Assembly (NCBI GenBank): GCA_965197905.1
Contig: CBDAOB010000005.1
Span: 32,001-96,000 of the forward strand
Length of the DNA stretch: 64,000 nt
Source: Candidatus Latescibacterota bacterium
GTDB lineage: Bacteria > Latescibacterota > UBA2968 > UBA8231
Reading direction: 5' to 3'
In this document: positions 14,733 through 46,710 of the stretch, piece by piece
Numbering within the stretch: the stretch's first letter is position 1
Layout of the letters: each line of letters opens with the position of its first letter
Notes under the pieces: generated by a model
Database searches by the model: none
What the model was told of the DNA's origin: nothing
The model's input: only the letters and a program-made list of their open reading frames with translations
Made by a program: the position numbers and the translations under genes

Positions 14733-14737
14733 AAGAC

Positions 14738-15551: not shown

Positions 15552-17533
15552 ATGAAATCACCCAAATCAGACGCTCAACAAACCGACGAATCGATACAGG
15601 ACGGACTGGCCCATTACCAGGCCGGACGACTGCAACAAGCGGAAACCATCTTCCAATCCATCTTGCAGGAACATCCCCAACATCCCGACGCCTTGCATCT
15701 GCTGGGAGTCCTCAAACATAGAGAAGGAGACCACGAAACCGCCGTCGGTCTGATCGAAGAGGCCATAAAATCGAACCCGACGGCACCGGCCTTTTTCAAC
15801 AACTGCGGTGAAGTCTATCGTGCATTGCAAGACTACGATTCGGCCATTGCCCGCTATGAGCAGGCCCTTGCCCTCAATCCGAAATACGCCGAGGCGTTCT
15901 ACAACCTGGGGATCACCCTTAACCAACTGGGCCGGCACGAAGAGGCTATCGAGCGCTATAAACAGGCCCTTGCCCTCAAGCCGGGCCATGGCAAGGCACA
16001 CAACAACCTGGGGAATGCGCTACGGAATCTGGGCCGTCAGGAAGATGCCCTTACCCACTATGGTCAGGCCCTTGCCATCCGGCCGAACTACGCCGAGGCG
16101 CACTACAACCTGGGGAATGCCCTCCAAGAGCTGGGCCGTCATGAAGAAGCGATCGCTTGTTACGAGCGCGCCGTTGCCATTGAGCCCGACTTCGCCGAGG
16201 CATACAACAACCTGGGAAACGCCCTCCATAAGATCGGACGGCATGACGAAGCGATTGTCCCCCTCGAACAAGCCGTTGCCCTCAAGCCGCATCTTGCCGA
16301 GGCGCACAGCAACCTGGGAAATGTCCTGCAGGAGCTGAGCCGGCACGACGAAGCCATTGCCAGTTACGAGCAGGCCCTCGATCTAAAGCCAGATTTCGCC
16401 GAGGCACATTACAATCTGGGAATTCCCTCCAGGACCTGGGCCGGCAGGAAGACGCCATCGCCAGTTACGAGCAGGCTCTTGTTCTCAAGCCTGACCACGC
16501 CGAGGCGCGAAGAAGTTTGACCCTGATCAAACCAAGTCCCGATCAAATTCCGCTGTTGGAAAAGCGTCTGACAGACCCGTCAACATCAGAGGAAGACGCG
16601 ATCCACCTGCATTTCGCGCTTGCCGATCTTTTCGACCAGGCCAATTCCTGCACCGATGCATTTGAACACGTGAAGAAAGCCAACGACCTGAAACGAAAAA
16701 CGATCACCTATGATGCGCGACAGCATTCTGTTTTTGTAGACCGAGTGATCAAGACCTATGCGACAAGCTTTTTCGAAACCAACACTGCGCGCGGGTCCGA
16801 TTCGGAACTGCCCGTATTCATCGTTGGCTTACCACGCTCCGGAACTACCCTCGTAGAACAGATTGTATCTAGCCATCCGCAGGTGTTTGGAGCGGGCGAG
16901 CTTGGATCTCTTATGGCCATTGAAGAAGGGATATCCAAAGAGATAGAAACATCGCGCCCTTACCCGGAGGGAATTTCGTCTTGCAAGGACTCAGTCGCAG
17001 CTGAGTTTTCGACCAGATATCTGCGTGAGCTGCGCGAGTACTCGCCGTCCGCAATCCGAATTACCGACAAGATGCCGAGCAATTTTCTCAGGATTGGTCT
17101 TATCAAAATCCTGTTCCCGAAGGCGCGCATCATTCATTGCAAACGCAATGCGCTCGATACCTGTACTTCTATCTTTCTGAATTATTTGGTAAAAGGTCAT
17201 GATTACTCCTTCGACCTAGAGGAGTTAGGGCAATATTATCTGGACTACGAGAGATTGATGAGACACTGGCGCGGCGTGGTCGCCGATGAAATATTCGAAG
17301 TGCAGTACGAAGAATTGGTTACGGATCAGGAGTCGGTTAGCCGGCAACTCATCGAACATGTCGGATTGGAGTGGGATGACACCTGCCTCGATTTTCACGA
17401 GAACACACGGGTGGTGAAGACGGCCAGCAATCTGCAGGTGCGCAAGCCGATGTACAAAAACTCGATCAACAGATGGCGGCGGTATGAGAAACAGCTGGCA
17501 CCCCTGGTAGCAATGCTCGATACCCACATCTGA
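15552..17533 (+). CDS. TPR-repeat sulfotransferase (Sulfotransfer_3-like), about 660 aa; frameshift at ~16418
   Basis: About nine 34-aa TPRs (AEAHYNLGNAL); FIVGLPRSGTTL, DKMP, TASNLQVRKP; adding one G to the G run in CTGGGAAT restores LGNSLQDLGRQ and joins ORF 16517-17533. Confidence 0.85.
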
Positions 17534-17589
17534 ACTACGCGTGTGCCTGCGGCCACGCTTCTTGCAGACATCATATCCCCTTGCCCTAA

Positions 17590-17623
17590 TTGACCGGTGT
17601 AAACATTTTGTTTATAATTACAC
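17590..17623 (+). promoter_or_regulatory. Sigma70 promoter with palindromic operator for higBA (probably leaderless)
   Basis: TTGACC (17590-95), 17 bp, TATAAT (17613-18); TAAACA-N3-TGTTTA and GTGTAA..TTACAC inverted repeats; ATG at 17627. Confidence 0.8.
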
Positions 17624-17626
17624 TTC

Positions 17627-17909
17627 ATGATTCGGTCGTTTGCCGACACCGAGACTGAGCGTTTCTACAATGTTGGAAAATCCCGTCGTTATCCGCCCTC
17701 CATCCAAGCAAGGGCCGCGATGCGGCTGACACAATTGAACGCCGCCACGCGTCTGGACGACTTGCGTTTGCCACCATCGAATCGATTGGAAGCCCTGAAA
17801 AGCGATCGCGTCGGTCAGTGGAGCATCCGTATTAACGACCAATGGCGGGTGTGTTTCCGCTTTGAGAGCGGTGACGCGTTCAATGTCGAAATCCGACTAC
17901 CACAGATAG
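17627..17909 (+). CDS. higB: HigB (RelE/ParE superfamily) toxin; reads through into higA as assembled
   Basis: MIRSFAD..LRLPPSNRLEALK..GQWSIRINDQWRVCF; the canonical DYH end followed by TAG (17907-09) lies out of frame. Confidence 0.85.
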
Positions 17910-17917
17910 GAGTCAGC

Positions 17918-18217
17918 ATGAACAAGGACGGCCTGCCCCCGATCCATCCCGGAGAATTTCTGCGTGAGATTCTGGAGGAGTTGGACATTTCTCAAGCTAA
18001 GTTCGCTCGCGCCATCGGCATTTCGCCAATGCGGGTGTCACACGTGGTGAACGGAGCGCGACCTGTGACGGCCGAATTAGCGCTCCTGTTTAGCAGGGCC
18101 TTCCATCATCAATCGCCGCAATACTGGCTCAATCTGCAAGCTGCGTACGACTTGAAAACCACCGAAACGGCCATAGCCAAACAGCTGAGAGCGGTCCCCG
18201 ATCTTTCGTCTGTTTGA
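17918..18217 (+). CDS. higA: HigA antitoxin (Xre-type HTH)
   Basis: PIHPGEFLREIL..YWLNLQAAYDL; own AGGAG RBS at 17908-12. Confidence 0.9.
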   Translation: MNKDGLPPIHPGEFLREILEELDISQAKFARAIGISPMRVSHVVNGARPVTAELALLFSRAFHHQSPQYWLNLQAAYDLKTTETAIAKQLRAVPDLSSV

Positions 18218-18545
18218 CCCGGTCGTTTCGCGAGCCGAGGTCATCGCAGTACCAAGCGCCCAACCATAAATACAAGCGCCGCCCGACCTCGACCTGCACG
18301 AGTGTCCAAAACCTCCTTGACCGACTCGTTGCAGAGGACGCCCGGACTGTTCACCGGTCTCGATCTCCTCAAATACGGACAAAACCACCAATTATGGATA
18401 CAACCATTACAGATCTACACAAATTGCCTGGAATCTGAAAACGACTCCGATTACCTTCCATTGATCGCCGGGCCGAAGCTGCACGCCGCTGCTCTGTATA
18501 CCATTATAGTACCTCCGGCGACGGAACCTTCCCGGTCCGGACTCG

Positions 18546-19622
18546 ATGCTGCCTACCGAATCTCACTTCGACTCTACCCATACGCCTGACCTACCTCCAC
18601 TTCTAGCCGAACTCGGCATCACCCTCGCCGTCACTACCTACCAGGCTGGCAAGGTGATTCTCATCAGCTCCGACGGCCAAGGGTTGCAGCATCTGCCGCG
18701 CACCTTCGACACCCCGATGGGCATGGCGGTCAAAGAGAACCAGATGGCGCTGGCGCTCAAGGACCGGATCGTGCTGCTGGCCAACGAACCGCGCCTGGCC
18801 GCGAGCTATCCAAACAAACCCAGCTACTACGATTCGCTGTGGGTCCCACGCTCGGTGCATTACTGCGGCGAGCTCAACGCCCACGACCTGGCCTTCGGTG
18901 AAGACGGCCTGGTGGGTGTCAACACCCTGTTCTCCTGTCTCTTTCGACTCGACGAGCAACACAGCTTCGTTCCGGTCTGGGAGCCGCCGTTTATCAGCGC
19001 CCTGGTCTCCGAGGACCGCTGCCATCTCAACGGCCTGGCGCTGGCGCCGGGAGAAGGCGAACAAGCTCTGGTGTCGGCATTGGGCACGAGCAACGAGCGC
19101 GAGGGTTGGCGCGAGAACAAGATGGAAGGGGGCGTGTTGATGAGCGTCCCGGAGGGCGAGACGGTGCTAAGCGGTCTGCCCATGCCCCACAGCCCCCGTT
19201 GGATCGGGGGCGAGCTCTATCTGCTGCTCTCCGCCCGCGGGGAGCTGGCAGTGGTGGATCTCGACGACGGCAGTTACGAGGTGATCCAGCGGGTTCCCGG
19301 ATTCGCACGAGGACTGGCCTTTCACGGCGACTATCTATTCGTCGGCGTGTCGCGTTTGCGGCCGGGCCGGATTTTCGGTGACGTGCCGCTGGCGGAGGGT
19401 GACACCAAGTGCGGCGTGGCGGTGGTGCATCGACCGAGCGGAGCGCTGATGGGCATGGTCGAATACACCTCCTCCTGCGAGGAGGTCTACGATGTGCAGG
19501 TGCTCGCCGGCATGCGCAGGCCGGGCATCCTCGGACTGGAAACCCCGACTCACCTGAGCTCGCTCTCGATTCCGCAAGAAACCTTCTGGATGGCGCCTGA
19601 TGCTGAGGAAGATGAGGGCTGA
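18546..19622 (+). CDS. TIGR03032/DUF4915 family protein (function unknown)
   Basis: TTYQAGK, HDL, VNTLFSCL, WEPPFIS, EDRCHLNGLA, MPHSPRW, PGFARGL, EEVYDVQV motifs. Confidence 0.9.
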   Translation: MLPTESHFDSTHTPDLPPLLAELGITLAVTTYQAGKVILISSDGQGLQHLPRTFDTPMGMAVKENQMALALKDRIVLLANEPRLAASYPNKPSYYDSLWVPRSVHYCGELNAHDLAFGEDGLVGVNTLFSCLFRLDEQHSFVPVWEPPFISALVSEDRCHLNGLALAPGEGEQALVSALGTSNEREGWRENKMEGGVLMSVPEGETVLSGLPMPHSPRWIGGELYLLLSARGELAVVDLDDGSYEVIQRVPGFARGLAFHGDYLFVGVSRLRPGRIFGDVPLAEGDTKCGVAVVHRPSGALMGMVEYTSSCEEVYDVQVLAGMRRPGILGLETPTHLSSLSIPQETFWMAPDAEEDEG

Positions 19623-19729
19623 GCCACGGAAATCTCAACGAGGACGGGGTCGAAACCCTGCTGTAGTCGATAAGCGGCACACAAACGTCGAAAGCGGTAC
19701 ACTTTTCGCGCATCCGCTTTGACGGGTTG

Positions 19730-19954
19730 TTAACCAGCTTCTTCCCATTCCAGGACTGGTTTTCGATTGCTGGATACACAGTCGCGCAAATAAAGATTGA
19801 TCAGATTTTGGTATGACATGCCGGTTTCGTCAGCCAGCGCTTTGAAGTAGTCGATCACGTCCACCCCCAAGCGGATTGTCACCTGTTTCTTAAGGCGACT
19901 CGCAAAAGGGTTCTTGCGGCGCTTCATTCTGGAAAGGTTGTATTCTCTCTTCAT
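19730..19954 (-). CDS. brnA: BrnA/CopG-type RHH antitoxin
   Basis: MKREY..KKQVTIRL..DVIDYFK..GMSYQNLINLYL. Confidence 0.85.
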   Translation of the reverse strand: MKREYNLSRMKRRKNPFASRLKKQVTIRLGVDVIDYFKALADETGMSYQNLINLYLRDCVSSNRKPVLEWEEAG

Positions 19955-20238
19955 GACTCCTCCAGGTACTCGGCCCGCTCCTTTTTCGTTGGTTTGCGGG
20001 CAGATATAATGCGGATAACGGACTCCTCATCTCGAAAGCAGTGCACGACTACCAAAATACGGAGCTTGGAGCTGCAGCCCAGCATCAGAAAGCGGTCTTC
20101 TCCGAGCACATCGTCATCAAAGAACTGCAATGCATGCTCGTCGAAAAAGACAGTCTGAGCCTCTTCGAACGAAACGCCGTGTTTCCTTTGATTCGCCTTA
20201 TTCTTGGCTTCGTCCCAATCAAACTGCAGATCTGCCAT
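19951..20238 (-). CDS. brnT: BrnT toxin
   Basis: FDWDEAKNKANQRKHGVSFEEA..EDRF..IRIISARK; 4-bp overlap with the antitoxin; start placed at MADLQF. Confidence 0.9.
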   Translation of the reverse strand: MADLQFDWDEAKNKANQRKHGVSFEEAQTVFFDEHALQFFDDDVLGEDRFLMLGCSSKLRILVVVHCFRDEESVIRIISARKPTKKERAEYLEES

Positions 20239-20245
20239 CTTGGAG

Positions 20246-20268: not shown

Positions 20269-20287
20269 TAGTGGACAGCTTGGAATC

Positions 20288-20425
20288 GGACAAATATTGG
20301 ATATCTCGCTGTGCTGCCAGTGCCGTGAAGCGGAAGTCGGGTCGGTCGCCATCGATCTCAACCGAGACGGGGTCATCGACGGCGGCGATCTCTTTATCGG
20401 TGACGCAGACAGCGATGATAACTGA
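20288..20425 (+). pseudogene. Degenerate 3' remnant of an additional giant-protein paralog
   Basis: GQILDISLCCQCREAEVGSVAIDLNRDGVIDGGDLF vs GQLDISLRGQGREPEKGQVSIDFN at 46033-46105; GGATATCTCGCTG shared at DNA level. Confidence 0.6.
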
Positions 20426-23400
20426 AGCCCACAACGCCAGCATCCACCACCTCAGCGACCGCGCCCTCTACCGCCGCAGCGAAGAGATGCTCTTCGAGGC
20501 GGCGCGGCTGCACTGCACCGGCCGGCGCTCCGGTCTGCGCCGGAGGGTCCGTCGCTATCTCAAGCCGTATCGCCGCGACCGCAACTTTCTCACCTCCCTC
20601 GCCTCGTCGGTGGGGCGGGCATTGGTGGTCGCCTTCCTGTTGGCGCAGCTGTGGGCGACGGAGGTGAACGCCCAGCCTTCCTTCAGTTCCTCCTCGCCGG
20701 CCAACGCCACCCACGCCACCGCGGTTAGCGCCAACATCAGCGCCACCTTCACCGAAGCGATCGCCGCCGGCACAGTGTCGAGTACGACCTTTGTATTGCA
20801 CGGCGGGTTCATCGGGAAGCATTCCACCGGAGGTACCGCTAGCACCCACAAGGACGCCACCTACACCGGCGGCGGTACGACGACGCTGACTATCAATCCC
20901 GGGGCCGACTTCGCGCCGGGGGAGCTGGTGAGCGTGTCGCTGACGACGGGGCTGCAGAACGGCAGCGCGCAGGCGCTGACGGCGGCGAAGGTGTATCAGT
21001 TCCGTGCGGCGGCAACGGGCGGGCCGGCGGTGTTCAGCAATGCGTCGCGTGATGTCGCAACCGCGACGAACGATACCCGCGCGACCTCACTGGGTGACTT
21101 GGATGGCGACGGCGATCTCGACCTGATCACCGGTAATAACCTCCAGGTGAACCAGGTGTATCTGGGCAATGGCAGTGGGTCCTTCGCCGCCGGCAACAAC
21201 GTCGAAACCGGGACGACGCTCAGGACCCACGCCACTTCGCTAGGTGACCTGGATGACGACGGCGATCTCGACCTGATCACCGGCAATAACCTCGAGGTGA
21301 ACCGGGTGTACTTGGGCAACGGCAGTGGGTCCTTCGCCGCTGGCAACAACGTCGAAACGGGTACGACGCTCAGGACCTACGCCACTTCACTAGGGGACCT
21401 GGACGGCGACGGCGACCTCGATCTGATTACCGGCAATAACGGCGAGGTGAATCGGGTATATCTGGGCAATGGCAGTGGGTCCTTCGCCGCCGGCAGCGAT
21501 GTCGAAACGGGCACGACGAACAATACCCGAGCCGTGTCGTTAGGGGACTTGGACGGCGACGGCGATCTCGATCTGATTACCGGAAACTACATCGCGGTGG
21601 ACCGGGTGTATTTGGGCAACGGTGACGGCACGTTCGCGGCCGGCAGCGATGTGGAAACCGGGACTCCGCTCAGGACCTTCGCCACCTCATTGGGGGACCT
21701 GGACGGCGACGGCGATCTCGATCTGGCCACTGGCAATCACAGTCCCCAGGTGAACAAGGTGTACTTGGGCAATGGCAACGGCACGTTCGCCGCCGGCAGC
21801 GACTTGGAATCGGGGATAACAAACGCTACTCGATCAACCCCGTTGGGAGACCTGGATGGTGATGGCGACCTCGATCTGATCACGGGCAACTACAGCAATC
21901 AGGCGAACCGGTTGTATTTAAGTAATGGCAATGGCACGTTTGCCGCTGGCAGCAATGCCGCTACGCCGACGAATCAGACCTGGAGCGTATCGTTAGGCGA
22001 CCTGGACGGCGACGGCGATCTCGATCTGATTACCGGTAATGAAGGCCAAGCGAACCGCGTCTATCTCAACAACAACACCAACTTCTCTTCTTCATCGCCA
22101 GCGGTAAACGCCCACAACGCAGCGACCACCTCGAACGTCAGCGCCACCTTCGGCCAATCGATGCAGGCGGCGACGAGCTCGACCTTTTTGGTGCACGGCG
22201 GTTTTACGGGCAAGCGGGCCGGCAGCTACAGCGGCGCCAGCAGTATGACCCTGACCTTCGATCCCACCAACGACTTCCGACCCGGCGAGGTGGTGGATGT
22301 GACCCTGACCGCCGGTTTGAAGAGCACCGCCGGCGATGCTTTTCAAAAGCCGAAGTCCTACCGCTTCCGCGCCACGGCGACCGCGGGGCCGGTGGTCTTC
22401 AGCTATGAGACGAGCGATGTCGAAACGGGTACGACGAACAAGGCCGGGTCCACCTCACTAGGCGACTTGGACGGCGATGGCGATCTCGATCTGATTGTCG
22501 GCAACACTGGCAGCCAGGTGAACCGGGTGTATCTGAATACCGCCAGCGGGGTCTTCGCCGCTGGCAGCGATGTCGAAACGGGCACGACGAACTCTACCTT
22601 TGCCACTTTGTTAGGTGACTTGGATGGCGACGGCGATCTCGATCTGATTACTGGCAATGACAACGGCCAGGTGAACCGGGTATATCTGGGCAATGGCAGC
22701 GGGGCTTTCGCCGCTGGCAGCGATGTCGCTACGCCGACGAACGCTACCCGATCCGCCTCGTTAGGTGACTTGGACGGCGACGGCGATCTCGATCTGATCA
22801 CGGGCAACTACAATAATCAGGTAAACCGGTTGTATTTAAGTAATGGCAGCGGGGCTTTCGCCGCTGGCAGCGATGTCGCTACGCCGACGAATCAGACCCG
22901 ATCTGTTTCGTTAGGTGACTTGGACGGGGATGGGGATCTCGATCTGATTACCGGCAATGGTAGCAGCCAGGTCAACCGAGTGTATTTAAGCAATGGGAAC
23001 GGGACCTTTGCCGCCGGCAGCGATGTCGAAACGGGCACGACGAATGTTACCCTTGCCACCTCGTTGGGTGATTTGGACGGCGACGGCGATCTCGATCTGA
23101 TTACCGGCAATCACAACCAGGTGAACCGGGTGTATTTGGGCAATGGCAGCGGGGCTTTCGCCGCCGGCAGCGATGTCGAATCGGGTACGACGAATAAAAC
23201 CTTTTCCACCTCGTTAGGTGATTTGGACGGCGACGGCGATCTCGATCTGATTACCGGCAATGACAGCCAGGTCAATCGGGTGTATTTGGGCAATGGCAGT
23301 GGTGCCTTCGCCGCCGGCAGCAATGTCGCTACGCCGACGAACGCTGCCCGATCCGTTTCGTTAGGCGACTTGGACTCAGATGGCGATCTCGATCTGATCG

Positions 23401-26400
23401 CTGGTAATTACAGCCAGGTCAATCGCGTATATCTCAATTCGGGCAACAAAGACGGCACCCTGACGGCGAGTGCCACCCTCGACGAGAGCAGCGCCATCGC
23501 CTTGCCGTCGACCGCTACGAGCTCGGGCGCGGCGGTCGATCTGTTCGACTTCACGCTCACCGACGGCGGTGGCGGTGACGGGTTTTCGCTGGGTGTGTCT
23601 AAGATCGTAATCCACACCTCGGGGACCGGTCCCTTCTCCCAGGTTACCTGGCTGCTCAACGGCCCCGACGCCACCAATGTCACCGGTACCTATAGCTCCG
23701 GTACCAACACCATCACCTTCTCCGGCCTGTCGGTCTCGGTGGCCGACGGAGGCAACGAGACCTACACCCTGCGGGGTTATTACGGCACCAACACCGGCCT
23801 GACCGAAGGACAGACCTTCTCGTTCTCCAGCGATGGCGACACCGATGTGACGATGACCAACAACCTCGGGTCGAGCATGGCGATCAGCAGCGCGGCGGTG
23901 AGCAACGGGGTGGCGGCTCAAGTGGGGATTACGGCGACGAAGCTCGCTTTTTCGACACAGCCGGCACCGCTGGCGCTGACCTCGGGCACCCAGCTCGATT
24001 TCACCACCGACCCGGCGGCGACGCTCAAAGACGCCGCGGGCAACCTCGACCTGACAGCGACGACGGTGACGCTGGCGGAAAACGGGGCGGGCACGTCGAC
24101 CTTCGTCAACAACACCGCGACCTCTGCCAGCGGGGTGGCGACCTTCAACGGACTGTTGCTGACCTACAATGCCCTCGACGCTTCGAGCATCGCGTTGGTG
24201 GCCTCCGCCGGCAGCCTGACAGCGACTTCCTCTTCGTTTGCGGTAACCGCCTTTCCCCTGGAGGCCAACAACACCGGGGTGTCCACTAGCGAGGGCGGGA
24301 CCGCGACGATTTCGTCGGACCAGCTGAAATTCACCGATGCTGCCAGCACCAATTCGCAGATCGTCTATACCATAGGCACCGCGCCCGCGGTGGGAGAGAT
24401 CCGCAAGAGCGGCACCGCCCTCGCCGCCAGTGGCACCTTCACGCAGGATGACATCGACAACGGCTTGGTGAGTTACACGCACAACGGCAGCGAAAACTTC
24501 ACCGACAGCTTCACCTACACGGTGTCGGGCAGTGCTGGCTTGTCAACCAGCAGCTTCGGATTCGGTTTCGAGATCGAGCCGGTCAACGACGCGCCTTCGC
24601 TGGACGTGCTGAGGGATGTGCCGGTGGAAGAGGGCGGCTACGTCGTCATCAGCAACGGGTATCTGCGTATCCTCGATGGGGACACCCACGCCAGTAAGCT
24701 GATCTTCACTGTGCAGGCGGCACCGGTCCATGGCCGCCTCAACCAGGGCAGCTTCTCCCAGGCCGACATCGATGAATCGCTGGTGACGTACATCCACAAC
24801 GGCTCCGATTCCAAAGCCGACAGCCTGCTTTTCAGCGTTGCCGATGCCAACGGTCTGGAGCTGATCAGCACTTGGCTACATTTCGTGATTCAGGCGCGCA
24901 ACGATGCACCGGTTATCCCGTCGATCGAGCATCTCTCTATAAAGGAAGGGGAGCTGCTGGTGCTGGACCTTACGGCCACCGATCCGGAAGGCGCATCGGT
25001 GGCGACGACGGTGACTGGACTTCCCACCGGTGCTACGCTGGACGGTACGATCCTCAAGTGGTTGCCGTTGTACGACCAATCCGGCACCTATCCGCTGGGT
25101 GTGGACTACGACGACGGCGAGGGCGGGACCAGCCGGCTGCGCTTCGAGATTCATGTGGGCGAGACCCCGATCCCAATGCTGATGCCGGAACCGAGTCTGC
25201 TGGACTTCGGGGACGTCGCTGCCGGCGAAACGGCGGACCTGACGTTTGTCCTGGTGAACAACGCGCCGATATCGATGGACCTGGCTCCTTTTGCGAGCAC
25301 GTCCGCTTACCTGAAGGTGGTGAGTCCGGCTTTTCCAGTTAGTCTACTGCCGGGCGCACAGTTGGATGTCACGGTGCGTTTCGCAGCCACCGACGACCGG
25401 GTAGAGATGCAGCAGGGCCGACTTACCTGCTCCAGTGAACTTGGTCAGGTGGAGGTGTCTGCCTTGGGTCGCAGTATCTGGTCGCGGCTGGTGGCCGACG
25501 AAGACGAGGTGCGTTTTCTTCCGGCGACCATCGGCGACATCCGCTGGCGCCACCTGACGTTGAGCAATCCCGGGAATCTACCGTTGGATATTTCCACGCA
25601 GCTTCCCGAGGACTCTGCATTCGGAGTCGAGCCGATAAAACTGACCATTCCCGGCGGTGAGGAGCGAACCATGCGCGTCCGTTTCGCGCCCTCGACCAAC
25701 CATCCCGTCGAGACGAGTCTGACGTTGATTAGCGCGGCGGGGCAACTGGACATCCCGCTGCGTTGCCAGGGTCGTGAGCCGGAGGAAGGACCGGTGTCCA
25801 TCGACTTCGACCTGGATCAGGGGAACCAGCAGCAAGACCAAATCGGCGGCGCCACTGCCGGCTTGGTTTACCAGCTACAGCTATATGCCAACGACGCACC
25901 GGCGATCTCGGGGTGGAGTGTGCGGGTCGACTTCGACGCCAGGCAGGTGTCGTACGTGGACGGCAGCTTTGCCCCCGGCGCTTTTCTCAGCCAGCTGGTA
26001 CCCCTGGCCAGCGTCGGCGACGGTTATGTGGAAATCGGTGGCGACGTTCTGGCCCGGCAGCGCGCGGCGTCGGGTAACGGGATCCTCGGCACGCTATCGT
26101 TTCAAGTGCAGGACGGCTTTTCAGAGGAAACCGAGCTGGCTGTCAGTCGCGTAACCTGGCATCGCGAGGACTGGATCGGTCCCGACCGTACCATCGTACA
26201 TGCGCCGGCCAGCATTTCCGCGGTTGATCTGGTTCCCATCGAGGATGGAGATGTTGACGTTCTCAGCGATGCCGGCGGTGGGGACGTCCCTATCGAGGAT
26301 GTAGATGTCGACGTCCCCCTCAAGGTTGGGGATTTCAACGCCGATGGCCGTGTCACCATGGACGATCTGTTTCTGATGGCGGACCAGTTCAATCAGACGG

Positions 26401-26498: not shown

Positions 26499-26504
26499 GG
26501 CCAG

Positions 26505-38100: not shown

Positions 38101-40783
38101 AAATCGCAGTGAAGTGAACCGAGTCTACCTCAATTCGGGCAACAAGGACGGTACCCTGACCGCCAGCGCCACTCTGGATGAGAGCAGCACCATCAACCTC
38201 ACCTCCACCGTCGATACCGCAGCCGAGGCTGTGGACTTATTCGACTTCACATTCACCGACGGTTCCGGCGGCGACGGTCTGGCGCTGATCGTTTCAAAGA
38301 TCGTGCTCAATACTTCCGGCACAGGTGCCTTCTCGCAAGTTGTCTGGCTGCTCAACGGCCCCGACGCCAGCAACGTCGGCGGCACCTACAGCTCCAGCGC
38401 CAACACCATTACGTTTTCTGGTCTTTCGATCTCGGTGGCCGACGGCGCCAACGAGACCTACAAGATTCGGGGTTATTACAGCGACACGACCGGTTTGGTC
38501 GATGGCGCGACCTTCTCGCTGTCCTTGGACGGTGATACCGAGGTTACCGCGACCGCCGGTTCGAGCATGTCGGGCGGTAACAGTGCGGTGAGCAATGCGG
38601 CCGCCGCCAAGGTGGTAGCGCCTCCCTTGCCCACCAGCAACCGGGTCGTGCACCTGCCGGAAAACAGCTCGGTAATGCTCGCCTCGAACCTGCTGACCTT
38701 CGCCGATGCCTCCAGCACGACTGGACAGATCGTCTACACCGTGCAGGCTGTTCCCACCGCTGGTAAACTCATCAAGAGTGGCTCAACACTTGGTGCGGGT
38801 GGCACCTTCACCCAGGACGATATCGACAACAACCGCATCAGCTATGCACATGGCGGCTCCGAGTTTTCCAATGACCATTTCCTTTTCACAGTAATCGGCA
38901 CGCCGGGGCTGACTACCGCCAATACCGCCTTCCAAATCGAGGTCGATCCGGTCAACGACGCACCCGCTCTCGATGTGCTGCGCGAGGTCCATGTGGACGA
39001 AGGTGGAACCGTTGTCATCAGCAATGGGTATTTGCGAGTTCTGGACAGCGATGCAAAAGCCAGCGCAGTGACGTTTACCGTACACGAGGGTCCGTTCCAT
39101 GGCCGACTCGGCCGCAGCACCTTTTCTCAAGCCGACATCGACCGATCGCTGGTGAGCTACGTGCACGACGGCTCCGAAACCCAGCGGGACAGTCTGTTGT
39201 TCAGCGTCTCCGACGGCAACGGCGCTGGGCTCGTCACTACCTGGCTGAGCTTTGCGGTACGCTCGCTCAACGATGGACCGATCATCCCGTCCATCGAAAA
39301 CCCCAATATCAAGGAAGGAGAGCTACTGGTCCTGGACCTGACGGCAACCGACCCAGAAGGGGCGGCGCTCACGACCACCGTCACCGGACTTCCAACCGGG
39401 GCGACGCTCGACGGCACCATGCTCAAGTGGCTGCCCCTCTACGACCAGGCCGGATCCTATCCGTTGGCTGCTGTCTACGATGACGGTCAAGGCGGAACCA
39501 GCCGGCTTCGCATCGACATAAACGTCGCCGATTCCCCGGTGCCGATGCTTTTGCCCGAGCCGAGCTTGGTGGACTTTGGAGATGTTCCCGCCGGAGAGAC
39601 CGCGGACAGGTCGTTCGCACTGGTCAATCAGGCGCCAGTTGCTCTGGACCTGGCTCCTTTTTCGAGTACGTCCTCTAATCTGAACATTTCCAGTCCCGTG
39701 TTCCCGCAAACTCTAGAACCTGGGGAGCGCGTCGACATTGCTGTGCGTTTTACCGCCACTGCCGACCGCGCCGACCTGCAGCAAGCACTGCTGACCAGCG
39801 CTACGAAACTTGGACCGGCGGAAGTGCCGGTCGTGGGACGCAGCGTCTGGCGGCGACTCGTCGCCGACAATGACGAAATCGCTTTCCTGCCGGCGGTGAT
39901 CGGTGACACGCGCTGGAAGCATCTGAACCTGAGCAATCCGGGAAACCTTGCACTCGAAGTTTCGGCTCAACTTCCAGACCCCACGCCCTTTGGCGTCGAG
40001 CCCAGTGAATTGACCTTGCCGGGCGGCCAAGACAAAATCATGCGCGTTCGCTTCGTACCTATCACAATCGAACCTGCAGAGGAACTGCTAACGTTGACGA
40101 GCGAGCTAGGGCAAGTGGATATCCCGCTAAGGGGACAAGGGCGCGAACCCGAAAAGGGCCAGGTTAGCATAGACTTCAATCCGGACCAGGGGAATCAGCA
40201 GCAGAACCTCATCGGCGGTGCCATTTCCGGTTCGGTGTACGTGCTTCAGCTCCATGCCAGTGGAGTGCCACAGGTGTCGGGATGGAGCGTACGCATCGAC
40301 TACGACCCGGACGAGTTGTCGTACGTGGAAGGCAGCTTTGCTCCGGGTTCGTTTCTCCGCCGGATTACGCCGCTAGAGCGTGTCGGCGAGGGTTATGTGG
40401 AGGCCGGTGGTGAGGCACTCGGTGGCGAGAGCTTAGCAAGGGGGAACGGCGTTCTGGGGACCCTCTCATTCCAGGTGGACGACGGATTCTCGGGTCAGAC
40501 CGAGCTGTCCGTGAGTCGGGTGACGTGGCATCGGGAGGACCGGATAGGCCTGGATCGAAACTTTGTCTACGCCTCGGCCAACATAACCGCCGCCGCCGTG
40601 ACCTTCATCAGCCCTGCAGATTTCAACGCCGATGGCAGTGTCGACACCGACGATTTCCTGTTGTTTGCGGATCAGTTTGGTCGCCGCGTGCCGCCGGCCG
40701 AGCCCCGCTTCGATCTGGATGGCGATGGTCGGGTCAGCCACCTGGATTTCTTTCTCTTTGCCGACCTGGTTTTCCAGGAGTAG
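35153..40783 (+). CDS. Giant surface protein 3 (1876 aa), two FG-GAP propellers, same architecture
   Basis: Conserved leader, 14 FG-GAP repeats, cadherin-like/ASH/cohesin/dockerin tail. Confidence 0.88.
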   Translation: MTTERPNANIAQLSDRALYRRSEEMLFEAARLHCSGRRSGLRKRVRRYLKPYRRDRTFLASLVSSVGRALVVAYLLAQLWATEVSAQPSFSSSSPANAKHNITVGSNITATFSQAIASGTVSSSTFVVHGGFIGKHSTGGTASTHKDATYTGGGTTTLTINPGANLAPGELLSVTLTTGLQNGSAQALSSAKVFQFRAATTGGPAVFSNNSHNVDASTNATRSISLGDLDGDGDLDLVTGDYSQVNRVYLGNSNGTFAAGSNVATPTNQTWSVSLGDLDGDGDLDFLAGNRFQANRVYLGNGNGTFASGNNADTPANSTLSVSLGDLDGDGDLDLVTGNGNSQVNRVYLGNGNGTFASGNNVDTPANVTQFVSLGDLDGDGDLDLVTGNFNQVNRVYLGDGDGTFASGSDIDAATNSTQSVTLGDFDEDGDLDLVTGDNGQVTRLHLGNGNGSFAAGSAIATPTNGTLIALVGDVDGNGDLDLVTGNWNQVNRVYLGNGNGTFSSGSDVDTPTNQTFKALLGDLDGDGDLDLVAANYTQVNRIYLNNNTKFSSSSPAANANSAATTTNISPTFTQSMQAATNSTFVVHGSMTGKRTGTYSGSNSTTLSFDSTKDFLPGEVVDVTLTAGLQNTSGDAMQPPRAYRLRTAAVQGPAVFSNISNDVATPTNQTYSVSLGDLDGDGDIDIVAGNAGPVNRVYLGNGNGTFASGSDVDTPTNTTRAVPLGDVDGDGDLDLVAGNQNQANRVYLGTGNGTFATGNDVDTPTNQTYSLSLGDIDGDGDLDLLVGNQNQVNRVYLGNGNGTFATGNDVDAATNNTIFVSLGDVDGDGDLDLVTGDYNQVNRVYQGDGNGTFGSPSNVDTPTNNTNSISLGDLDSDGDLDLATGNFNQVNRIYLGNGNGTFASGNDVDTPTNATISLSLGDVDGDGDLDLLAGNYNQVNRFYLGIGNGAFASGSDVDTPANNTDAVSLGDLDGDNDLDLVTGNRSEVNRVYLNSGNKDGTLTASATLDESSTINLTSTVDTAAEAVDLFDFTFTDGSGGDGLALIVSKIVLNTSGTGAFSQVVWLLNGPDASNVGGTYSSSANTITFSGLSISVADGANETYKIRGYYSDTTGLVDGATFSLSLDGDTEVTATAGSSMSGGNSAVSNAAAAKVVAPPLPTSNRVVHLPENSSVMLASNLLTFADASSTTGQIVYTVQAVPTAGKLIKSGSTLGAGGTFTQDDIDNNRISYAHGGSEFSNDHFLFTVIGTPGLTTANTAFQIEVDPVNDAPALDVLREVHVDEGGTVVISNGYLRVLDSDAKASAVTFTVHEGPFHGRLGRSTFSQADIDRSLVSYVHDGSETQRDSLLFSVSDGNGAGLVTTWLSFAVRSLNDGPIIPSIENPNIKEGELLVLDLTATDPEGAALTTTVTGLPTGATLDGTMLKWLPLYDQAGSYPLAAVYDDGQGGTSRLRIDINVADSPVPMLLPEPSLVDFGDVPAGETADRSFALVNQAPVALDLAPFSSTSSNLNISSPVFPQTLEPGERVDIAVRFTATADRADLQQALLTSATKLGPAEVPVVGRSVWRRLVADNDEIAFLPAVIGDTRWKHLNLSNPGNLALEVSAQLPDPTPFGVEPSELTLPGGQDKIMRVRFVPITIEPAEELLTLTSELGQVDIPLRGQGREPEKGQVSIDFNPDQGNQQQNLIGGAISGSVYVLQLHASGVPQVSGWSVRIDYDPDELSYVEGSFAPGSFLRRITPLERVGEGYVEAGGEALGGESLARGNGVLGTLSFQVDDGFSGQTELSVSRVTWHREDRIGLDRNFVYASANITAAAVTFISPADFNADGSVDTDDFLLFADQFGRRVPPAEPRFDLDGDGRVSHLDFFLFADLVFQE

Positions 40784-41058: not shown

Positions 41059-44000
41059 ATGACCGAGGGTAGGGCCAACGTCGATCACCTGAGCGACCGG
41101 GCGCTCTACCGCCGCAGCGAGGAGATGCTCTTCGAGGCGGCGAGGCTGCACTGCAGCGGCCGGCGCTCCGGCCTGCGCAAGCGGATACGCCGCTACCTGA
41201 AGCCGTATCGGCGGGATCGGACCTTTCTCGCCTCCCTCGTTTCTTCGGTAGGCCGGGCCCTGGTCGTTGCCTACCTCTTGGCGCAGCTGTGGGCTGCCGA
41301 GGTGAGTGCCCAACCTTCCTTCAGCTCCTCCTCGCCGGCCAACGCTAAACACAACATCGCAGTCGGCAGCAACATCACGGCTACCTTTTCCCAGGCGATC
41401 GCTTCGGGCACTGTGTCGAGCTCCACCTTCGTGCTGCACGGCGGTTTCATTGGCAAACATTCAACCGGGGGCACCGCCAGCACCCACAAGGACGCTACCT
41501 ACACCGGCGGCGGCACGACGACTCTGACCCTCAATCCGGGAGCTAACTTCGCGCCGGGAGAGCTGTTGAGCGTGACCTTGACGACGGGCTTGCAGAATGG
41601 GAGCGCACAGGCGTTGTCGGCGGCGAAAGTGTTTCAGTTTATGGCGGCAACCAGCGGTGGGCCGGCGGTGTTCAGCAATGAATCGCAAAACTTTGGGACG
41701 GGCAGCGATGGGACCTTCGAGGTTGTTGCTGGCGATGTGGACGGAGACGGCGATCTGGACCTGGCGGTCGGCAACCATACTGGGCAGAATGTCGTGTATC
41801 TGGGCGATGGGGACGGGACGTTTGCTACGGCCGGTAACAATTTCGGCCCAGGGGGCGGGCAAACATGGACGGTGCAGTTCGGCGACGTGGACGGAGACGG
41901 CGATCTGGACGCAGCCTCGGCTGAGTACAACAGCCAGAATCGCGTCTACTTCGGAGACGGAGACGGCACCTTCGACACGACGAACACCAACTACGGTACC
42001 GGCATTGACAAAACGGTTCAGGTACTGCTTGGGGATCTGGACGGGGACGGCGACCTCGACCTGGTTGGCGGAACCTACACGTTGCAAAACGTAGTGTATA
42101 TGGGGGATGGAGACGGGTCCTTCGATACGACCAGTCACAATTTCGGCACCGGTACCGACAATACTCGAGCCCTGGCACTTGGCGATGCGGACGGGGATGG
42201 CGATCTGGATCTATTCGTCGGCAACAACGCGGCGCAGAATGTCGTGTATATGGGGGATGGAGACGGCACGTTCGATACAACCAGCAACAACTTCGGACCG
42301 GGTACCCAGGCGACAGTCGATCTTACGCTAGGTGATGTGGACGGGGACGGGGATCTGGACTTGCTCGTGGGGAATGCAGCCGCGCAACAGAATGTCCTGC
42401 ATTTAGGCGATGGCGACGGCACTTTCGACACGACTAGCATCAACTTCGGCACTGGATCTGACGGGACCTACGCCGTGAGGTTGGGCGATCTGGACGGGGA
42501 CGGCGATCTGGACTTGTTCGCGGGCAACTACGGTGGACAGGATGTCGTGTACCTAGGGGATGGGGACGGGACCTTTGATACGACCAGTCGCAACTTAGGT
42601 ACTGGAAGTGAGAAGACATCGACCGGCTCGATGGGAGACCTGGACGGGGATGGTGACCTGGACATCGTCGTGGGAAGCAGAAATGAGCAAAATGTGGTCT
42701 ATCTAAACAACGAAACGGCGTTCTCGTCATCTTCGCCGGCGGCCAACGCCAACAGTGTGGCCACCACCACCAACGTCAGCGCCACCTTCAATAAGACCAT
42801 GAAGGCGGCGACGAGCTCGACCTTTTTGGTGTACGGCAGTATGACGGGTAAACGCGCGGGGAGCTACAGCGGTGCGGGAAGCACGACCGCGACGTTCGAT
42901 CCGACGAAGGACTTCAAGCCCGGTGAGCTGGTGGAAGTAACGGTGACACCGGGCCTGCAGAGCACCGCCGGCGATGCGGTGCAACCGCCTCGGGTGTATC
43001 AGTTTCGCGCAGCGGCAGCCAAGGGGCCGGTGGTGTTCAGTCATGTTTCGAGCGATGTCGCCACGCCAACGAACGATACCTGGGAGGCTTTGTTGGGAGA
43101 TCTTGACGCGGACGGCGATCTGGATCTGGTCACTGGCAATAACAATCAAGTGAACCGGGTGTATTTGGGTAATGGCAATAGCACGTTCGCCTCCGGTAAC
43201 GACCTGGCCACGCCAGCGAATAGCACCCGAACCGCGGCGTTAGGTGATTTGGACGGGGACGGCGACGTGGATCTGGTTACCGGTAATGCCAGCTCCACTG
43301 TAAACCGGGTGTATTTGAGCAACGGCAACGGCACCTTCGCTTCGGGCAACGATGTCGCTACGCCGACCAACAACACCTGGTCGGTGTCATTGGGTGATTT
43401 GGATGGGGACAGCGACCTAGATCTGGTCACCACCAACGCAAATCAGGTGAACCGGGTGTATCTAAGCAACGGCAATGGCATCTTTGCGACGGGCAGCGAT
43501 GTCGATACGCCGACAAATAATAGCCAGACCGCATTGTTAGGCGATTTGGACGGGGACGGCGACGTGGATCTGGTTACCGGTAATGCCAGCTCCACTGTAA
43601 ACCGGGTGTATTTGGGCAATGGCAATGGCTCCTTCGCGTCGGGCAGCGACGTTGCCACGCCGGCGAATACCACCCGAACCGCGGCGTTAGGTGATTTGGA
43701 CGGGGACGGCGACCTGGATCTGGTTACCGGCAATGACGGTCAAGTGAACCGGGTGTATTTGAGCAACGGCAACGGCACCTTCGCTTCGGGCAACGATGTC
43801 GCCACGCCGACCAACAACACCTGGTCGGTGTCATTGGGAGATATGGATGGGGATGGCGATCTGGACTTCGTCGCAGGCAATTACCCTCAGGTGAACCGGG
43901 TGTATTTGGGTAATGGCAATGGCACGTTCGCTACCGGCAGTGATGTCGATACGCCGACCAACAAGACCTTCGCCGTGCCGTTGGGAGACTTGGATGGGGA

Positions 44001-46710
44001 CGGCGATCTGGATCTAGTCACGGGCAATTCAACTCAAGTAAACCGGGTCTACCTCAATTCGGGCAATAAGGATGGCACCCTCACCGCCAGCGCCACCCTC
44101 GACGAGAGCAGCACCATCAATCTGCTCTCCACCGTCGACAGTCAGGCCGAAGGGGTCGATCTCTTCGACTTCACCTTCACCGACGGCGCTGGTGGTGACG
44201 GACTCGCACTCATCGTATCGAAGCTCGTACTCAACACCTCCGGCACCGGCGCGTTCTCCCAGGTTGCCTGGCTGCTCAACGGCCCCGACGCCAGCAATGT
44301 CAGCGGCACCTACAGTTCCAGTTCCAACACCATCACCTTCTCCGGTTTGTCGATCTCGGTCGCCGACGGCGCCAGCGAGACCTACACCGTACGGGGCTAC
44401 TACACTAACACGACCGGTTTAGTGGATGGCGCGACCTTCGCTCTATCCCTGGACGGCGATACCGAGGTGACGGCAACCGCGGGTTCAAGCATGTCGGGTA
44501 GTAACGTAGCGGTTAGCAACGCAGCAGCGGCGAAGGTTGTTACTTCTCCCCTGCCGACCAACAACCGCGGGGTCCGACTGTCAGAGAGCAGTTCCGTAAC
44601 GATTTCCTCGAATTTGCTCACCTTCGCTGATGCGTCCAGCACCGCCGGACAGATCGTCTACACCATACTGGCCGCACCGACGCTGGGTCGGCTCACCAAG
44701 AGCGGTTCCACGCTGGGTGCGGGCTCTACCTTCACCCAGGACGATATCGACAACAGCCGAATCAGCTACGTCCACGGGGGTTCCGAGTTTTTTACTGACA
44801 ATTTCTCTTTTACGGTCAAAGGAACTCCGGGTTTGGCCACCGCCAACACCGCCTTCCACATCGAGATCGACCCGGTCAACGATGCGCCCCGGTTGGACGT
44901 GTTGCGTGAGGTCCAGGTGGATGAGGGTGGTAGTGTGGTCGTCAACAACGGGTATTTGCGAATACTGGACGGCGATACCCATGCCAGCAAGCTCACCTTC
45001 ACCGTGCACGAGGGTCCGTACTATGGCCGCGTCGGCCGCAGCACCTTTTCCCAGGCCGACATCGACCGATCGTTGGTAAGCTATGTGCATGATGGTTCCG
45101 AAACCCAGCGCGACAGCCTGCGTTTCAGCGTTGCCGATGCCGGCGGCGCCCAGCTTGCAAGCACCTGGCTGAGTTTCGCGATTCGGTCGCTCAACGACGG
45201 GCCGATCATCCCGTCGATTGAAAGTCCCCATATAAAGGAAGGAGAGCTACTGGTACTGGACCTGGCGGCAACCGACCCAGAAGGCGCGGCGATCACGACC
45301 ACGGTCACCGGACTTCCAACCGGGGCGACGCTCGATGGCACCATGCTCAAGTGGCTGCCCCTTTACGACCAGGCCGGATCCTATCCGTTGGCTGCTGTCT
45401 ACGACGACGGCCAGGGCGGTACCAGCCGGCTTCGCATCGATATCAACGTGTCAGACGCCCAGGTGCCGATGCTTTTGCCCGAGCCGGCTCTCGTGGACTT
45501 TGGGGACGTGCCCGCAGGGGAAACCGAGGACAAAACCTTTGCGCTGGTCAACCAGGCGCCGGTGGCGCTCGAGCTGGCACCGTTTTCCAGTACCTCCGCC
45601 AATCTCAGCGTAGCCAGTCCAGCATTTCCGGTGAATCTGGATCCGGGTCAGCGGGTGGAGATCACCGCGCGGTTTACGGCTGCCGCCGACCACGCCGACG
45701 TGCAGCAAGCGTTGCTGACCAGTGCTACGAAGCTGGGGCCGGCGGAAGTGCCGGTTGTGGGACGCAGCGTCTGGAATCGACTGGTTGCAGACAACGACGA
45801 AATCGCTTTTCTACCGGCGGTGATCGGTGACACGCGCTGGAAGCATCTGAACCTGAGCAATCCGGGGAACCTGCCGCTGGATGTCGTTGCTCAGCTGCCC
45901 GACGACACGCCCTTTGGCGTCGAGCCCAATGAATTGACCGTGCCGGGTGGCGAAGAAAAAGTCATGCGCGTTCGCTACGTGCCGGTAACGGTAGAGCCGG
46001 TGGAAGAATTGCTAACGTTGACGAGTGAGCTAGGGCAGCTGGATATCTCGCTGCGGGGACAAGGGCGTGAACCCGAGAAGGGCCAGGTTAGCATAGACTT
46101 CAATCCGGACCAGGGGAATCAGCAGCAGAACCTCATCGGCGGTGCCATTTCGGGTTCGGTGTACGTGCTTCAACTCCATGCCAGTGGAGTGCCACAGGTG
46201 TCGGGATGGAGCGTACGCATCGACTACGACCCGGAAGAGTTGTCGTACGTGGAAGGCAGCTTTGCTCCGGGTTCGTTTCTCCGCCGGTTGACGCCGCTAG
46301 AACGTGTCGGCGAGGGTTATGTGGAAGCTGGTGGTGATGCACTAGGTGGGGAGAGCTTGGCAAACGGGAACGGTGTTCTGGGGACCCTCTCATTCCAGGT
46401 GGACGACGGATTCTCGGGTCAGACCGAGCTGTCCGTAAGCCGGGTGACCTGGCATCGGGAGGACCGGATCGGGCTGGATCGCAACGTTGTGTATGCCTCT
46501 GCAAACATAACCGCCGCCGCCGTGACCTTCATCAACCCTGCAGATTTCAACGCCGATGGCAGTGTCGACACCGACGATTTCCTGTTGTTTGCGGACCAGT
46601 TTGGTCATCGCGTACCTCCGGCCGAGCCCCGCTTCGATCTGGATGGCAATGGCCGGATCAACCACCTGGATTTCTTCCTCTTTGCCGACCTGGTGCTGGA
46701 GGAGGAGTGA
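41059..46710 (+). CDS. Giant surface protein 4 (1883 aa), two FG-GAP propellers, the first with a distinct blade type
   Basis: Conserved leader, 14 FG-GAP repeats, tail very similar to protein 3. Confidence 0.88.
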   Translation: MTEGRANVDHLSDRALYRRSEEMLFEAARLHCSGRRSGLRKRIRRYLKPYRRDRTFLASLVSSVGRALVVAYLLAQLWAAEVSAQPSFSSSSPANAKHNIAVGSNITATFSQAIASGTVSSSTFVLHGGFIGKHSTGGTASTHKDATYTGGGTTTLTLNPGANFAPGELLSVTLTTGLQNGSAQALSAAKVFQFMAATSGGPAVFSNESQNFGTGSDGTFEVVAGDVDGDGDLDLAVGNHTGQNVVYLGDGDGTFATAGNNFGPGGGQTWTVQFGDVDGDGDLDAASAEYNSQNRVYFGDGDGTFDTTNTNYGTGIDKTVQVLLGDLDGDGDLDLVGGTYTLQNVVYMGDGDGSFDTTSHNFGTGTDNTRALALGDADGDGDLDLFVGNNAAQNVVYMGDGDGTFDTTSNNFGPGTQATVDLTLGDVDGDGDLDLLVGNAAAQQNVLHLGDGDGTFDTTSINFGTGSDGTYAVRLGDLDGDGDLDLFAGNYGGQDVVYLGDGDGTFDTTSRNLGTGSEKTSTGSMGDLDGDGDLDIVVGSRNEQNVVYLNNETAFSSSSPAANANSVATTTNVSATFNKTMKAATSSTFLVYGSMTGKRAGSYSGAGSTTATFDPTKDFKPGELVEVTVTPGLQSTAGDAVQPPRVYQFRAAAAKGPVVFSHVSSDVATPTNDTWEALLGDLDADGDLDLVTGNNNQVNRVYLGNGNSTFASGNDLATPANSTRTAALGDLDGDGDVDLVTGNASSTVNRVYLSNGNGTFASGNDVATPTNNTWSVSLGDLDGDSDLDLVTTNANQVNRVYLSNGNGIFATGSDVDTPTNNSQTALLGDLDGDGDVDLVTGNASSTVNRVYLGNGNGSFASGSDVATPANTTRTAALGDLDGDGDLDLVTGNDGQVNRVYLSNGNGTFASGNDVATPTNNTWSVSLGDMDGDGDLDFVAGNYPQVNRVYLGNGNGTFATGSDVDTPTNKTFAVPLGDLDGDGDLDLVTGNSTQVNRVYLNSGNKDGTLTASATLDESSTINLLSTVDSQAEGVDLFDFTFTDGAGGDGLALIVSKLVLNTSGTGAFSQVAWLLNGPDASNVSGTYSSSSNTITFSGLSISVADGASETYTVRGYYTNTTGLVDGATFALSLDGDTEVTATAGSSMSGSNVAVSNAAAAKVVTSPLPTNNRGVRLSESSSVTISSNLLTFADASSTAGQIVYTILAAPTLGRLTKSGSTLGAGSTFTQDDIDNSRISYVHGGSEFFTDNFSFTVKGTPGLATANTAFHIEIDPVNDAPRLDVLREVQVDEGGSVVVNNGYLRILDGDTHASKLTFTVHEGPYYGRVGRSTFSQADIDRSLVSYVHDGSETQRDSLRFSVADAGGAQLASTWLSFAIRSLNDGPIIPSIESPHIKEGELLVLDLAATDPEGAAITTTVTGLPTGATLDGTMLKWLPLYDQAGSYPLAAVYDDGQGGTSRLRIDINVSDAQVPMLLPEPALVDFGDVPAGETEDKTFALVNQAPVALELAPFSSTSANLSVASPAFPVNLDPGQRVEITARFTAAADHADVQQALLTSATKLGPAEVPVVGRSVWNRLVADNDEIAFLPAVIGDTRWKHLNLSNPGNLPLDVVAQLPDDTPFGVEPNELTVPGGEEKVMRVRYVPVTVEPVEELLTLTSELGQLDISLRGQGREPEKGQVSIDFNPDQGNQQQNLIGGAISGSVYVLQLHASGVPQVSGWSVRIDYDPEELSYVEGSFAPGSFLRRLTPLERVGEGYVEAGGDALGGESLANGNGVLGTLSFQVDDGFSGQTELSVSRVTWHREDRIGLDRNVVYASANITAAAVTFINPADFNADGSVDTDDFLLFADQFGHRVPPAEPRFDLDGNGRINHLDFFLFADLVLEEE

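Follow-up and report, generated by a model that had tools for sequence, protein, structure and literature searches.

Among the closest described counterparts of the locus analyzed here is the HMW1C system, in which a cytoplasmic enzyme is co-encoded with a giant surface protein and modifies it before export, the protein often bearing an extended signal peptide (PMC8151025). Ogt of Synechococcus elongatus, a TPR-GT41 protein, is a TPR-bearing cytoplasmic enzyme that modifies the nearby-encoded surface protein PilA (PMC9306852), and RaxST sulfates a linear peptide before its leader is removed (PMC11143521). Sulfate is also transferred by PAPS-independent arylsulfate sulfotransferases (ASSTs), whose catalytic residues are His252, His356, Asn358, Arg374, and His436 in the E. 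coli enzyme (PMC13426309) and His220, His283, Asn285, Arg301, and His350 in that of D. hafniense (bioRxiv 10.64898/2026.10.08.757636). 

The locus lies in a 64,000-nucleotide stretch of DNA (the window) from a genome of 6.69 Mb. On the + strand, it encodes a TPR array, a Sulfotransfer_3 domain, a HigB/HigA module, a DUF4915 protein, and then four giant FG-GAP proteins. An ORF map and family scans confirmed this order, which an earlier note on the DNA had given as TPR-sulfotransferase, TIGR03032 protein, and four leader-bearing paralogous giants. Like HMW1C/HMW1A, other NGT-adhesin pairs, and the heptosyltransferases Aah/TibC, the locus joins a co-encoded cytoplasmic enzyme with a giant secreted protein, and other DUF4915 loci carry GT41. 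Unlike in the HMW1C/NGT pairs, the enzyme is a TPR-sulfotransferase, the cargo consists of FG-GAP/Ig proteins and not of type V proteins, the leader has no ESPR match, and there is a second conserved factor, DUF4915. By analogy, the locus would work like HMW1C- or Aah-type modification of adhesins before export but falls outside those systems as defined by GT41 and by type V/ESPR. The Ogt-PilA pair differs in that Ogt glycosylates a pilin, and the accessible part of its description makes no mention of DUF4915 or FG-GAP cargo (PMC9306852). In the literature searched, which left most subscription journals outside its scope, no paper was found under the names TIGR03032 or DUF4915 (PF16261), nor was a description of such a DUF4915 cassette.

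We give an even chance to the reading that the locus represents a widespread type of cassette, anchored by DUF4915, that modifies the neighboring giants in the cytoplasm before export, here probably by sulfation.

Layout of the locus

The observed gene order is detailed in Table 1. The TPR array and the sulfotransferase domain lie in two ORFs with a one-base shift near 16420, and the TPR ORF (15489-16520) is out of frame past ~16420. In the relative G098, the equivalent site reads through, while a frameshift of its own is found further upstream. Since the two genomes break at different sites, we infer a single fused TPR-sulfotransferase gene, which was split by assembly indels. Giant 2 is split into three ORFs, with shifts near 29997 and 31765.

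Table 1. Features of the locus, with positions in the window
Feature	Position	Strand	Basis or remark
TPR array, N-terminal part of the putative TPR-sulfotransferase fusion	15552..16420	+	Pfam TPR families; three-frame reading; G098 comparison
PAPS-dependent Sulfotransfer_3 domain, TPST-like, no signal peptide seen	16420..17533	+	Pfam E 1.3e-44; PDB matches
HigB/HigA toxin-antitoxin insertion	17627..18217	+	Reads as one ORF; HigB end apparently shifted near 17893; HigA from 17918
DUF4915 / TIGR03032 protein, 358 aa, predicted six-bladed beta-propeller, no signal peptide	18546..19622	+	Pfam, TIGR03032, model
BrnT/BrnA toxin-antitoxin insertion	19730..20238	-	Family scan; absent in G098
Leader 1 (86 aa): conserved 44-aa core in a basic N-region, then a hydrophobic stretch and an AxA|Q-type end	20415..20672	+	
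Giant protein 1 (2027 aa): leader, Big_5 + FG-GAP propeller x2, cadherin-like, ASH/Cep192 Ig, dockerin-like end	20415..26498	+	
Leader 2 (86 aa)	26505..26762	+	
Giant protein 2 (about 2770 codons; FG-GAP content roughly doubled)	26505..34821	+	Three ORFs
Leader 3 (86 aa)	35153..35410	+	
Giant protein 3 (1876 aa)	35153..40783	+	
Leader 4 (84 aa)	41059..41310	+	
Giant protein 4 (1883 aa)	41059..46710	+	

Frameshifts recur throughout the window. At 736-3025 (+), ORFs for an M6 peptidase and a FlgD tail overlap out of frame and are probably one gene with another indel. Similarly, an ASPIC/UnbV FG-GAP protein at 50072-52944 (+) has its FlgD tail in the next ORF, probably as one frameshifted gene. 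The latter protein has no leader match, so the leader is not on every FG-GAP protein in the window.

The toxin-antitoxin modules of the locus are passengers, since G098 differs at both insertion spots: it has a different two-gene module between the sulfotransferase and DUF4915, and no module follows DUF4915, the stop of which and the giant gene's start overlap. A third toxin-antitoxin-like module, a nucleotidyltransferase and HEPN pair (14339-15449, +), lies directly upstream of the TPR gene. Also upstream, at 7354-8250 (-) and 11218-13884 (+), a Sulfotransfer_1 protein (a second sulfotransferase), a UDP-glucose dehydrogenase, and a nickel-pincer isomerase (group 22) are encoded.

DUF4915 is present in one copy in the genome, as is a sulfotransferase of the TPR-sulfotransferase type (tblastn, E<1e-5); together with the four leaders, all copies are at the locus. 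The Sulfotransfer_3 Pfam family has five matches in the genome. Among named relatives, the closest is a Candidatus Latescibacterota genome, the DUF4915 protein of which is 96% identical to that of the window.

The Sulfotransfer_3 domain carries PAPS-binding motifs, and its closest solved relatives are tyrosylprotein sulfotransferases (TPSTs): the best seven of nine PDB matches are protein-tyrosine sulfotransferases (E 4.5e-8 to 6e-7). This supports the part of the earlier note in which the surface proteins are modified, for example by sulfation. The TPST residues line up with what we take to be the 5'-phosphosulfate loop, the Glu following it, a Lys, and the 3'-phosphate Arg/Ser. The cytoplasmic location of the enzymes was judged by eye from their N-termini. 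The locus differs from TPST1/2 and from RaxST/RaxX in its cytoplasmic TPR fusion, its Sec-type signal, and the paucity of tyrosines in acidic context; furthermore, RaxX is a short RiPP precursor, whereas the cargo here is 1876-2770 aa long and has a hydrophobic signal core.

Common to the giants are the leader of 84-86 aa, Big_5 and FG-GAP propeller units, cadherin-like and ASH-type Ig domains, and a dockerin-like end, and their C-terminal halves are 60-86% identical. A Pfam scan detected no autotransporter or TPS domain in them and no C-terminal Por/FlgD-type sorting domain (T9SS cargo). Three or more acidic neighbors were found for 10 of the 174 tyrosines counted (the third ORF of giant 2 was left out). 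So few acidic-context tyrosines fit classical TPST sites poorly, and sulfate may instead be placed on Ser/Thr or on a sugar carried by the protein. N-x-S/T sequons are enriched (30-45 observed versus 22-26 expected). N-glycosylation was nevertheless set aside as the chemistry of the locus, GT41 (PF13844) having no match in the genome, which is 91% complete.

Directly after giant 4, the window encodes a protein (46904-48910, +) that begins with what looks like a signal peptide, contains repeated Ig-like units, and carries at its C-terminus a domain resembling the T4 gp19 tail tube (PF06841, E 8e-8). A similar tail-tube-like protein adjoins a giant gene in G098 (L125:6357-8381). Such a secreted tail-tube fusion is odd.

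Neighborhoods of DUF4915 across bacteria

The DUF4915 protein of the locus is a full member of its family, with 369 bits against a Pfam cut-off of 35 and 360 against the TIGR03032 cut-off of 251.5. Among 7999 candidates scored, 7101 matched DUF4915. The family is common and is also present in Synechococcus elongatus, and no match was detected in phages. Neighborhoods were analyzed in 80 metagenome loci (selected as the best among roughly 6000, with a bias toward the window's clade), 4 GTDB loci, and 13 of 15 plasmid records. An adhesin-like ORF was located within 3 kb of DUF4915 in 21 of the 29 metagenome loci with both flanks of at least 1.5 kb (41/80 for all), in 2/4 GTDB loci, and, by the automatic test, in 10/13 plasmid loci, counts that include kin and hence are not independent. 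The background was 1/50 for distal anchors and 19/300 for random anchors in the own genome. By annotation, 12 of the 13 plasmid loci, a set that spans three phyla, have an adhesin-like gene within two genes of DUF4915. We conclude that the linkage between DUF4915 and adhesins is not due to chance.

The cargo beside DUF4915 is varied and includes leader-bearing FG-GAP proteins, proteins with planctomycete-type leaders, autotransporters, CTERM proteins, and RTX-bearing proteins. At four cyanobacterial loci (L142, L145, L146, and L147), the FG-GAP neighbors, which are of RTX type, start at the first repeat and are leaderless, and the DUF4915 protein beside them keeps the same invariant residues. 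Because of these neighbors, leader recognition, the job suggested in the earlier note, cannot be the general role of DUF4915.

The partner enzymes also vary. DUF4915 was found fused to AspH and Sulfotransfer_3 (L003, L094, and L106), to Sulfotransfer_3 (L100 and L110), to GT41 (L142 and L144), to GNAT (L142 and L145-L147), to GT2, and to TPR. TPR-GT41 adjoins it in L021, L032, L079, and L095, and sulfate-activation genes adjoin the DUF4915 locus in L003 and L142. A sulfotransferase is present at at least 4 of the 80 metagenome loci, many of which are short; with a sulfotransferase so rare, most DUF4915 proteins are without an adjacent sulfate donor enzyme. The leader, DUF4915, and sulfotransferase had been expected to form a fixed trio. 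This expectation failed, since G066 combines leader and DUF4915 with a TPR-GT41 and since a sulfotransferase of the window's type was not found in G131 or G066 with the window query. What holds of the proposed pathway of modification before export is that DUF4915 is tied, across phyla, to large secreted repeat proteins and protein-modifying enzymes; an obligate trio is not part of it. Since both the leader of the cargo and the partner enzyme change between loci, DUF4915 and its repeat cargo are the core of the cassette, and leader type and enzyme are exchangeable modules.

In a quick tree of 104 DUF4915 domains, from which the G066 and G098 rows are absent, the window protein belongs to a 42-row clade (SH-aLRT 95) with G131 and Bacteroidota-like loci. 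The FG-GAP partners of this clade, where seen, have extended N-termini. Divergent DUF4915-like propellers that keep the His motifs were also observed (L022, L024, L025, and L016-L018; G053, G074, G089, G041, and G043). Genes for glycosyltransferases and sugar enzymes surround the divergent genes of G053 and G074, and the one of G053 adjoins a Sulfotransfer_3 gene. Sugar clusters containing a divergent gene and no adhesin are L022, L024, and L143.

Conserved residues of the DUF4915 propeller

AlphaFold predicts a confident propeller for DUF4915 (pLDDT 94), which resembles six-bladed propellers of many functions. The invariant residues are H113, D157-R-C-H160-L-N162, W188-R189, P-H215-S-P-R, R255, and E313. 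H113, H160, H215, R255, and E313 are conserved in 106-107 of 107 diverse DUF4915 proteins; for N162 and R189, the number is 105. According to the model, H113, H160, H215, R255, and E313 are positioned at the first strand of consecutive blades. This conservation looks more like that of an enzyme active site than like that of the recognition or chaperone factor proposed earlier.

Structure matches include the ASSTs 3ELQ (Z 19.9; 277 aligned, rmsd 4.1) and 9KF6 (Z 19.6; 264 aligned, rmsd 3.5), and YWTD propellers scored higher (Z 23.8). DUF4915 thus shares the beta-propeller of ASSTs, a fold for which many propellers reach an equal or higher Z. For profile comparisons, ASST sets were built from PF14269 matches; the 14-sequence set finds Cpz4 (E 1e-21) and E. 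coli ASST (E 9e-15). In five of eight alignment runs, D157, H160, N162, R189, and H215 fell on conserved D, H, N, R, and H of ASSTs, with H160, N162, R189, and H215 on the invariant H195, N197, R225, and H256 of the ASST set; the other three runs, all global, collapsed to one column. With NHL/SGL control propellers, the residue set was matched in none of eight alignments. H113 fell on the first ASST His (E. coli His252) in one profile alignment and not in the others, and it has the same blade position by secondary structure. This apparent register between DUF4915 and the PAPS-independent arylsulfate sulfotransferases is a new observation.

The profile probability between DUF4915 and ASST ranged from 1.5% to 90%, depending on the alignment. 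It was rejected as proof of ASST kinship, since the NHL control scored as high (92-96%). None of 118 DUF4915 members matched any ASST Pfam family at E<=10, and PDB profile searches with DUF4915 returned no ASST.

In summary, DUF4915 is like the ASSTs of E. coli (3ELQ), D. hafniense, and Streptomyces (Cpz4, 9KF6) in its predicted beta-propeller and in the order and register of its His-x-Asn, Arg, and third His. It also adjoins a sulfotransferase, as Cpz4 adjoins the PAPS-dependent sulfotransferase Cpz8 (PMC6731281). It differs from them in that it is without a sequence-level family match, an N-terminal beta-sandwich, or a signal peptide, in its extra invariant residues R255, R272, E313, and C159, and in its protein rather than small-molecule context. 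We do not file DUF4915 as an ASST. That it works like an ASST-type histidine enzyme is a tentative reading, to which we give somewhat less than an even chance.

The leader and the proposed order of events

With 16-17 K+R in its basic N-region, its hydrophobic stretch, and its AxA|Q-type end, the leader reads, by eye, as an extended Sec signal. It has no Pfam match below E 0.2, no NCBIfam match, and no ESPR match. Among the four paralogs, its 44-aa core shows 93-100% identity, and the codon differences per pair (10-16 synonymous versus 0-3 nonsynonymous) indicate purifying selection.

A leader profile search of 1.84 billion representatives yielded 53 matches. FG-GAP motifs were present in 31 of the 34 matches of at least 170 aa, and the remaining three comprise one truncated protein of the window type, one unclear case, and one false match. 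Three members are named Myxococcota. The members differ in their terminal sorting signals, which are FlgD/T9SS-like or PEP-CTERM-like; P0138, P0147, and P0148 have a C-terminal Por/FlgD-type sorting domain. Judging from these sequences, the leader defines an unnamed extended signal-peptide family of Latescibacterota and Myxococcota and is a new marker for finding such cargo. Outside these phyla, one weak match was obtained in 401 relatives of an Acidobacteriota genome and three in 401 Planctomycetota genomes (E >= 1.9e-4).

Among 168 genomes of the phylum Latescibacterota, the leader is present in 5 and DUF4915 in 12 (10 over the cut-off). DUF4915 lies within two genes of the leader in four of the five leader-bearing genomes, toxin-antitoxin insertions aside, a count that is partly circular, since the same four genomes built the first leader model. 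In the fifth (G161, outside the first model), which is 92% complete and has both leader loci near contig ends, no DUF4915 was found. 

A second unnamed family of extended leaders (72-85 aa, basic, ending in AQ) is found on FG-GAP proteins beside DUF4915 in contigs that are Bacteroidota-like (phylum inferred). It comprises L049, L036, L057, and 25 similar loci (28 aligned), and the two tested have no Pfam family at cut-off. These leaders have the same architecture as that of the window and are not detectably homologous to it (hhalign P 1.9% and 9.2%), so a single family spanning both was rejected. ESM Atlas searches with the leader and DUF4915 (own family excluded) gave weak leads, the best at 0.90 and 0.89, in NHL/SGL/strictosidine-synthase clusters. 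A complex prediction for DUF4915, the TPR, and leader residues 8-70, run without controls, scored 0.00 and counts neither way.

The near-identity of the leader core, with its mostly synonymous changes, contrasts with the lower identity of the C-terminal halves. Together with the proximity of DUF4915 in four of five leader-bearing genomes and the extended N-termini in the 42-row clade, it would fit a RiPP-like recognition tag that is bound by DUF4915 or the TPR domain and recruits the modifying enzyme. Such a tag is nevertheless unlikely, considering that DUF4915 keeps its invariant residues beside leaderless FG-GAP proteins, that homology to the Bacteroidota-like leaders is undetectable, and that no DUF4915 was found in G161. 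Alternatively, DUF4915 could be a noncatalytic scaffold or holdase for the unfolded Asp/Asn/Gly/Thr-rich repeats, which it would bind and offer to whichever enzyme is attached. We give this little credence, since three His, one Asn, two Arg, and one Glu are near-invariant at the channel mouth and four of them match the ASST set, although the structures that it matches best are YWTD and Kelch propellers that bind peptides, many DUF4915 loci are without an adjacent enzyme, and an adaptor would suit a protein that stays constant while the partner chemistry shifts from sulfation to glycosylation to acetylation.

The partner enzymes belong mostly to families known for protein acceptors (TPR-GT41, TPST-like, and Asp/Asn hydroxylase), and a large repeat protein is found as the neighbor irrespective of how it is exported (autotransporter, RTX, CTERM, or T9SS-like). 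Both observations make it improbable that the enzymes act on a small molecule or an envelope glycan and that the giants bind or display the product. This alternative is in line with the activity of known ASSTs on phenolics and sugars (PMC13426309), the divergent DUF4915-like genes among glycosyltransferases and sugar enzymes (L022, L024, and L143), the rarity of acidic-context tyrosines in the giants, and the second sulfotransferase and UDP-glucose dehydrogenase 3-8 kb upstream. Finally, adhesin duplicates, toxin-antitoxin modules, and enzymes might have clustered by chance in a plastic island, as could be suspected from three toxin-antitoxin modules in 6 kb and from the giant array of G098, which is IS-disrupted and rearranged. 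This explanation is largely refuted and very improbable in view of the 21/29 versus 1/50 linkage, the gene fusions, the stop/start overlap in G098, and a core order that stays while the modules change.

For the preferred reading, a DUF4915-anchored cassette acting before export, we propose the following chemical steps. The long basic leader would serve as a Sec signal, the extension of which would slow export, as proposed for autotransporter ESPRs, and thereby give time for modification; it would not be an obligatory recognition tag. The TPR-sulfotransferase would use PAPS (an APS kinase is encoded in the genome), and its TPRs would hold the unfolded chain. DUF4915 would be the catalytic partner with an ASST-like His/His-x-Asn/Arg/His site, where a sulfo or similar oxyanion group would be taken up on H215 and passed to hydroxyl groups of the repeats or of sugars that they carry. 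Possibly, the two proteins form a relay like Cpz8/Cpz4 (PMC6731281). The chain would then be exported, and the calcium-binding propellers would fold outside. Weighing against this reading are the remoteness of the ASST link, the scarcity of sulfotransferases at DUF4915 loci, the small number of acidic-context tyrosines in the giants, the divergent DUF4915-like genes in adhesin-free sugar clusters, and the frameshifts in the sulfotransferase gene and giant 2.

In its most specific form, the proposal would make DUF4915 a cytoplasmic, protein-directed branch of ASST-like histidine-relay enzymes, which together with the TPR-sulfotransferase poly-sulfates the giants before export while the extended signal holds the cargo in the cytoplasm. 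We consider this form doubtful. If true, ASST-type chemistry, for which few natural substrates are known (PMC13426309), would be extended by a branch that acts on proteins, and bacteria would have a general modular route by which giant adhesins are sulfated, glycosylated, or hydroxylated ahead of export. The locus gives DUF4915 a substrate class and a testable catalytic hypothesis, the ASST-like histidine site.

Two further relatives of the giants were observed. A fifth copy of their C-terminal half, 67% identical, is encoded elsewhere (G000:C5:2285183-2286997); its N-terminus is a different one, which bears a CxxCH-like motif and lacks the leader. In G098, a giant gene with the leader minus its first third (L125:10577-15787) is joined in frame, as judged by eye, to an enolase/racemase-like ORF, with IS-like genes nearby and at a distance of 550 kb from DUF4915.
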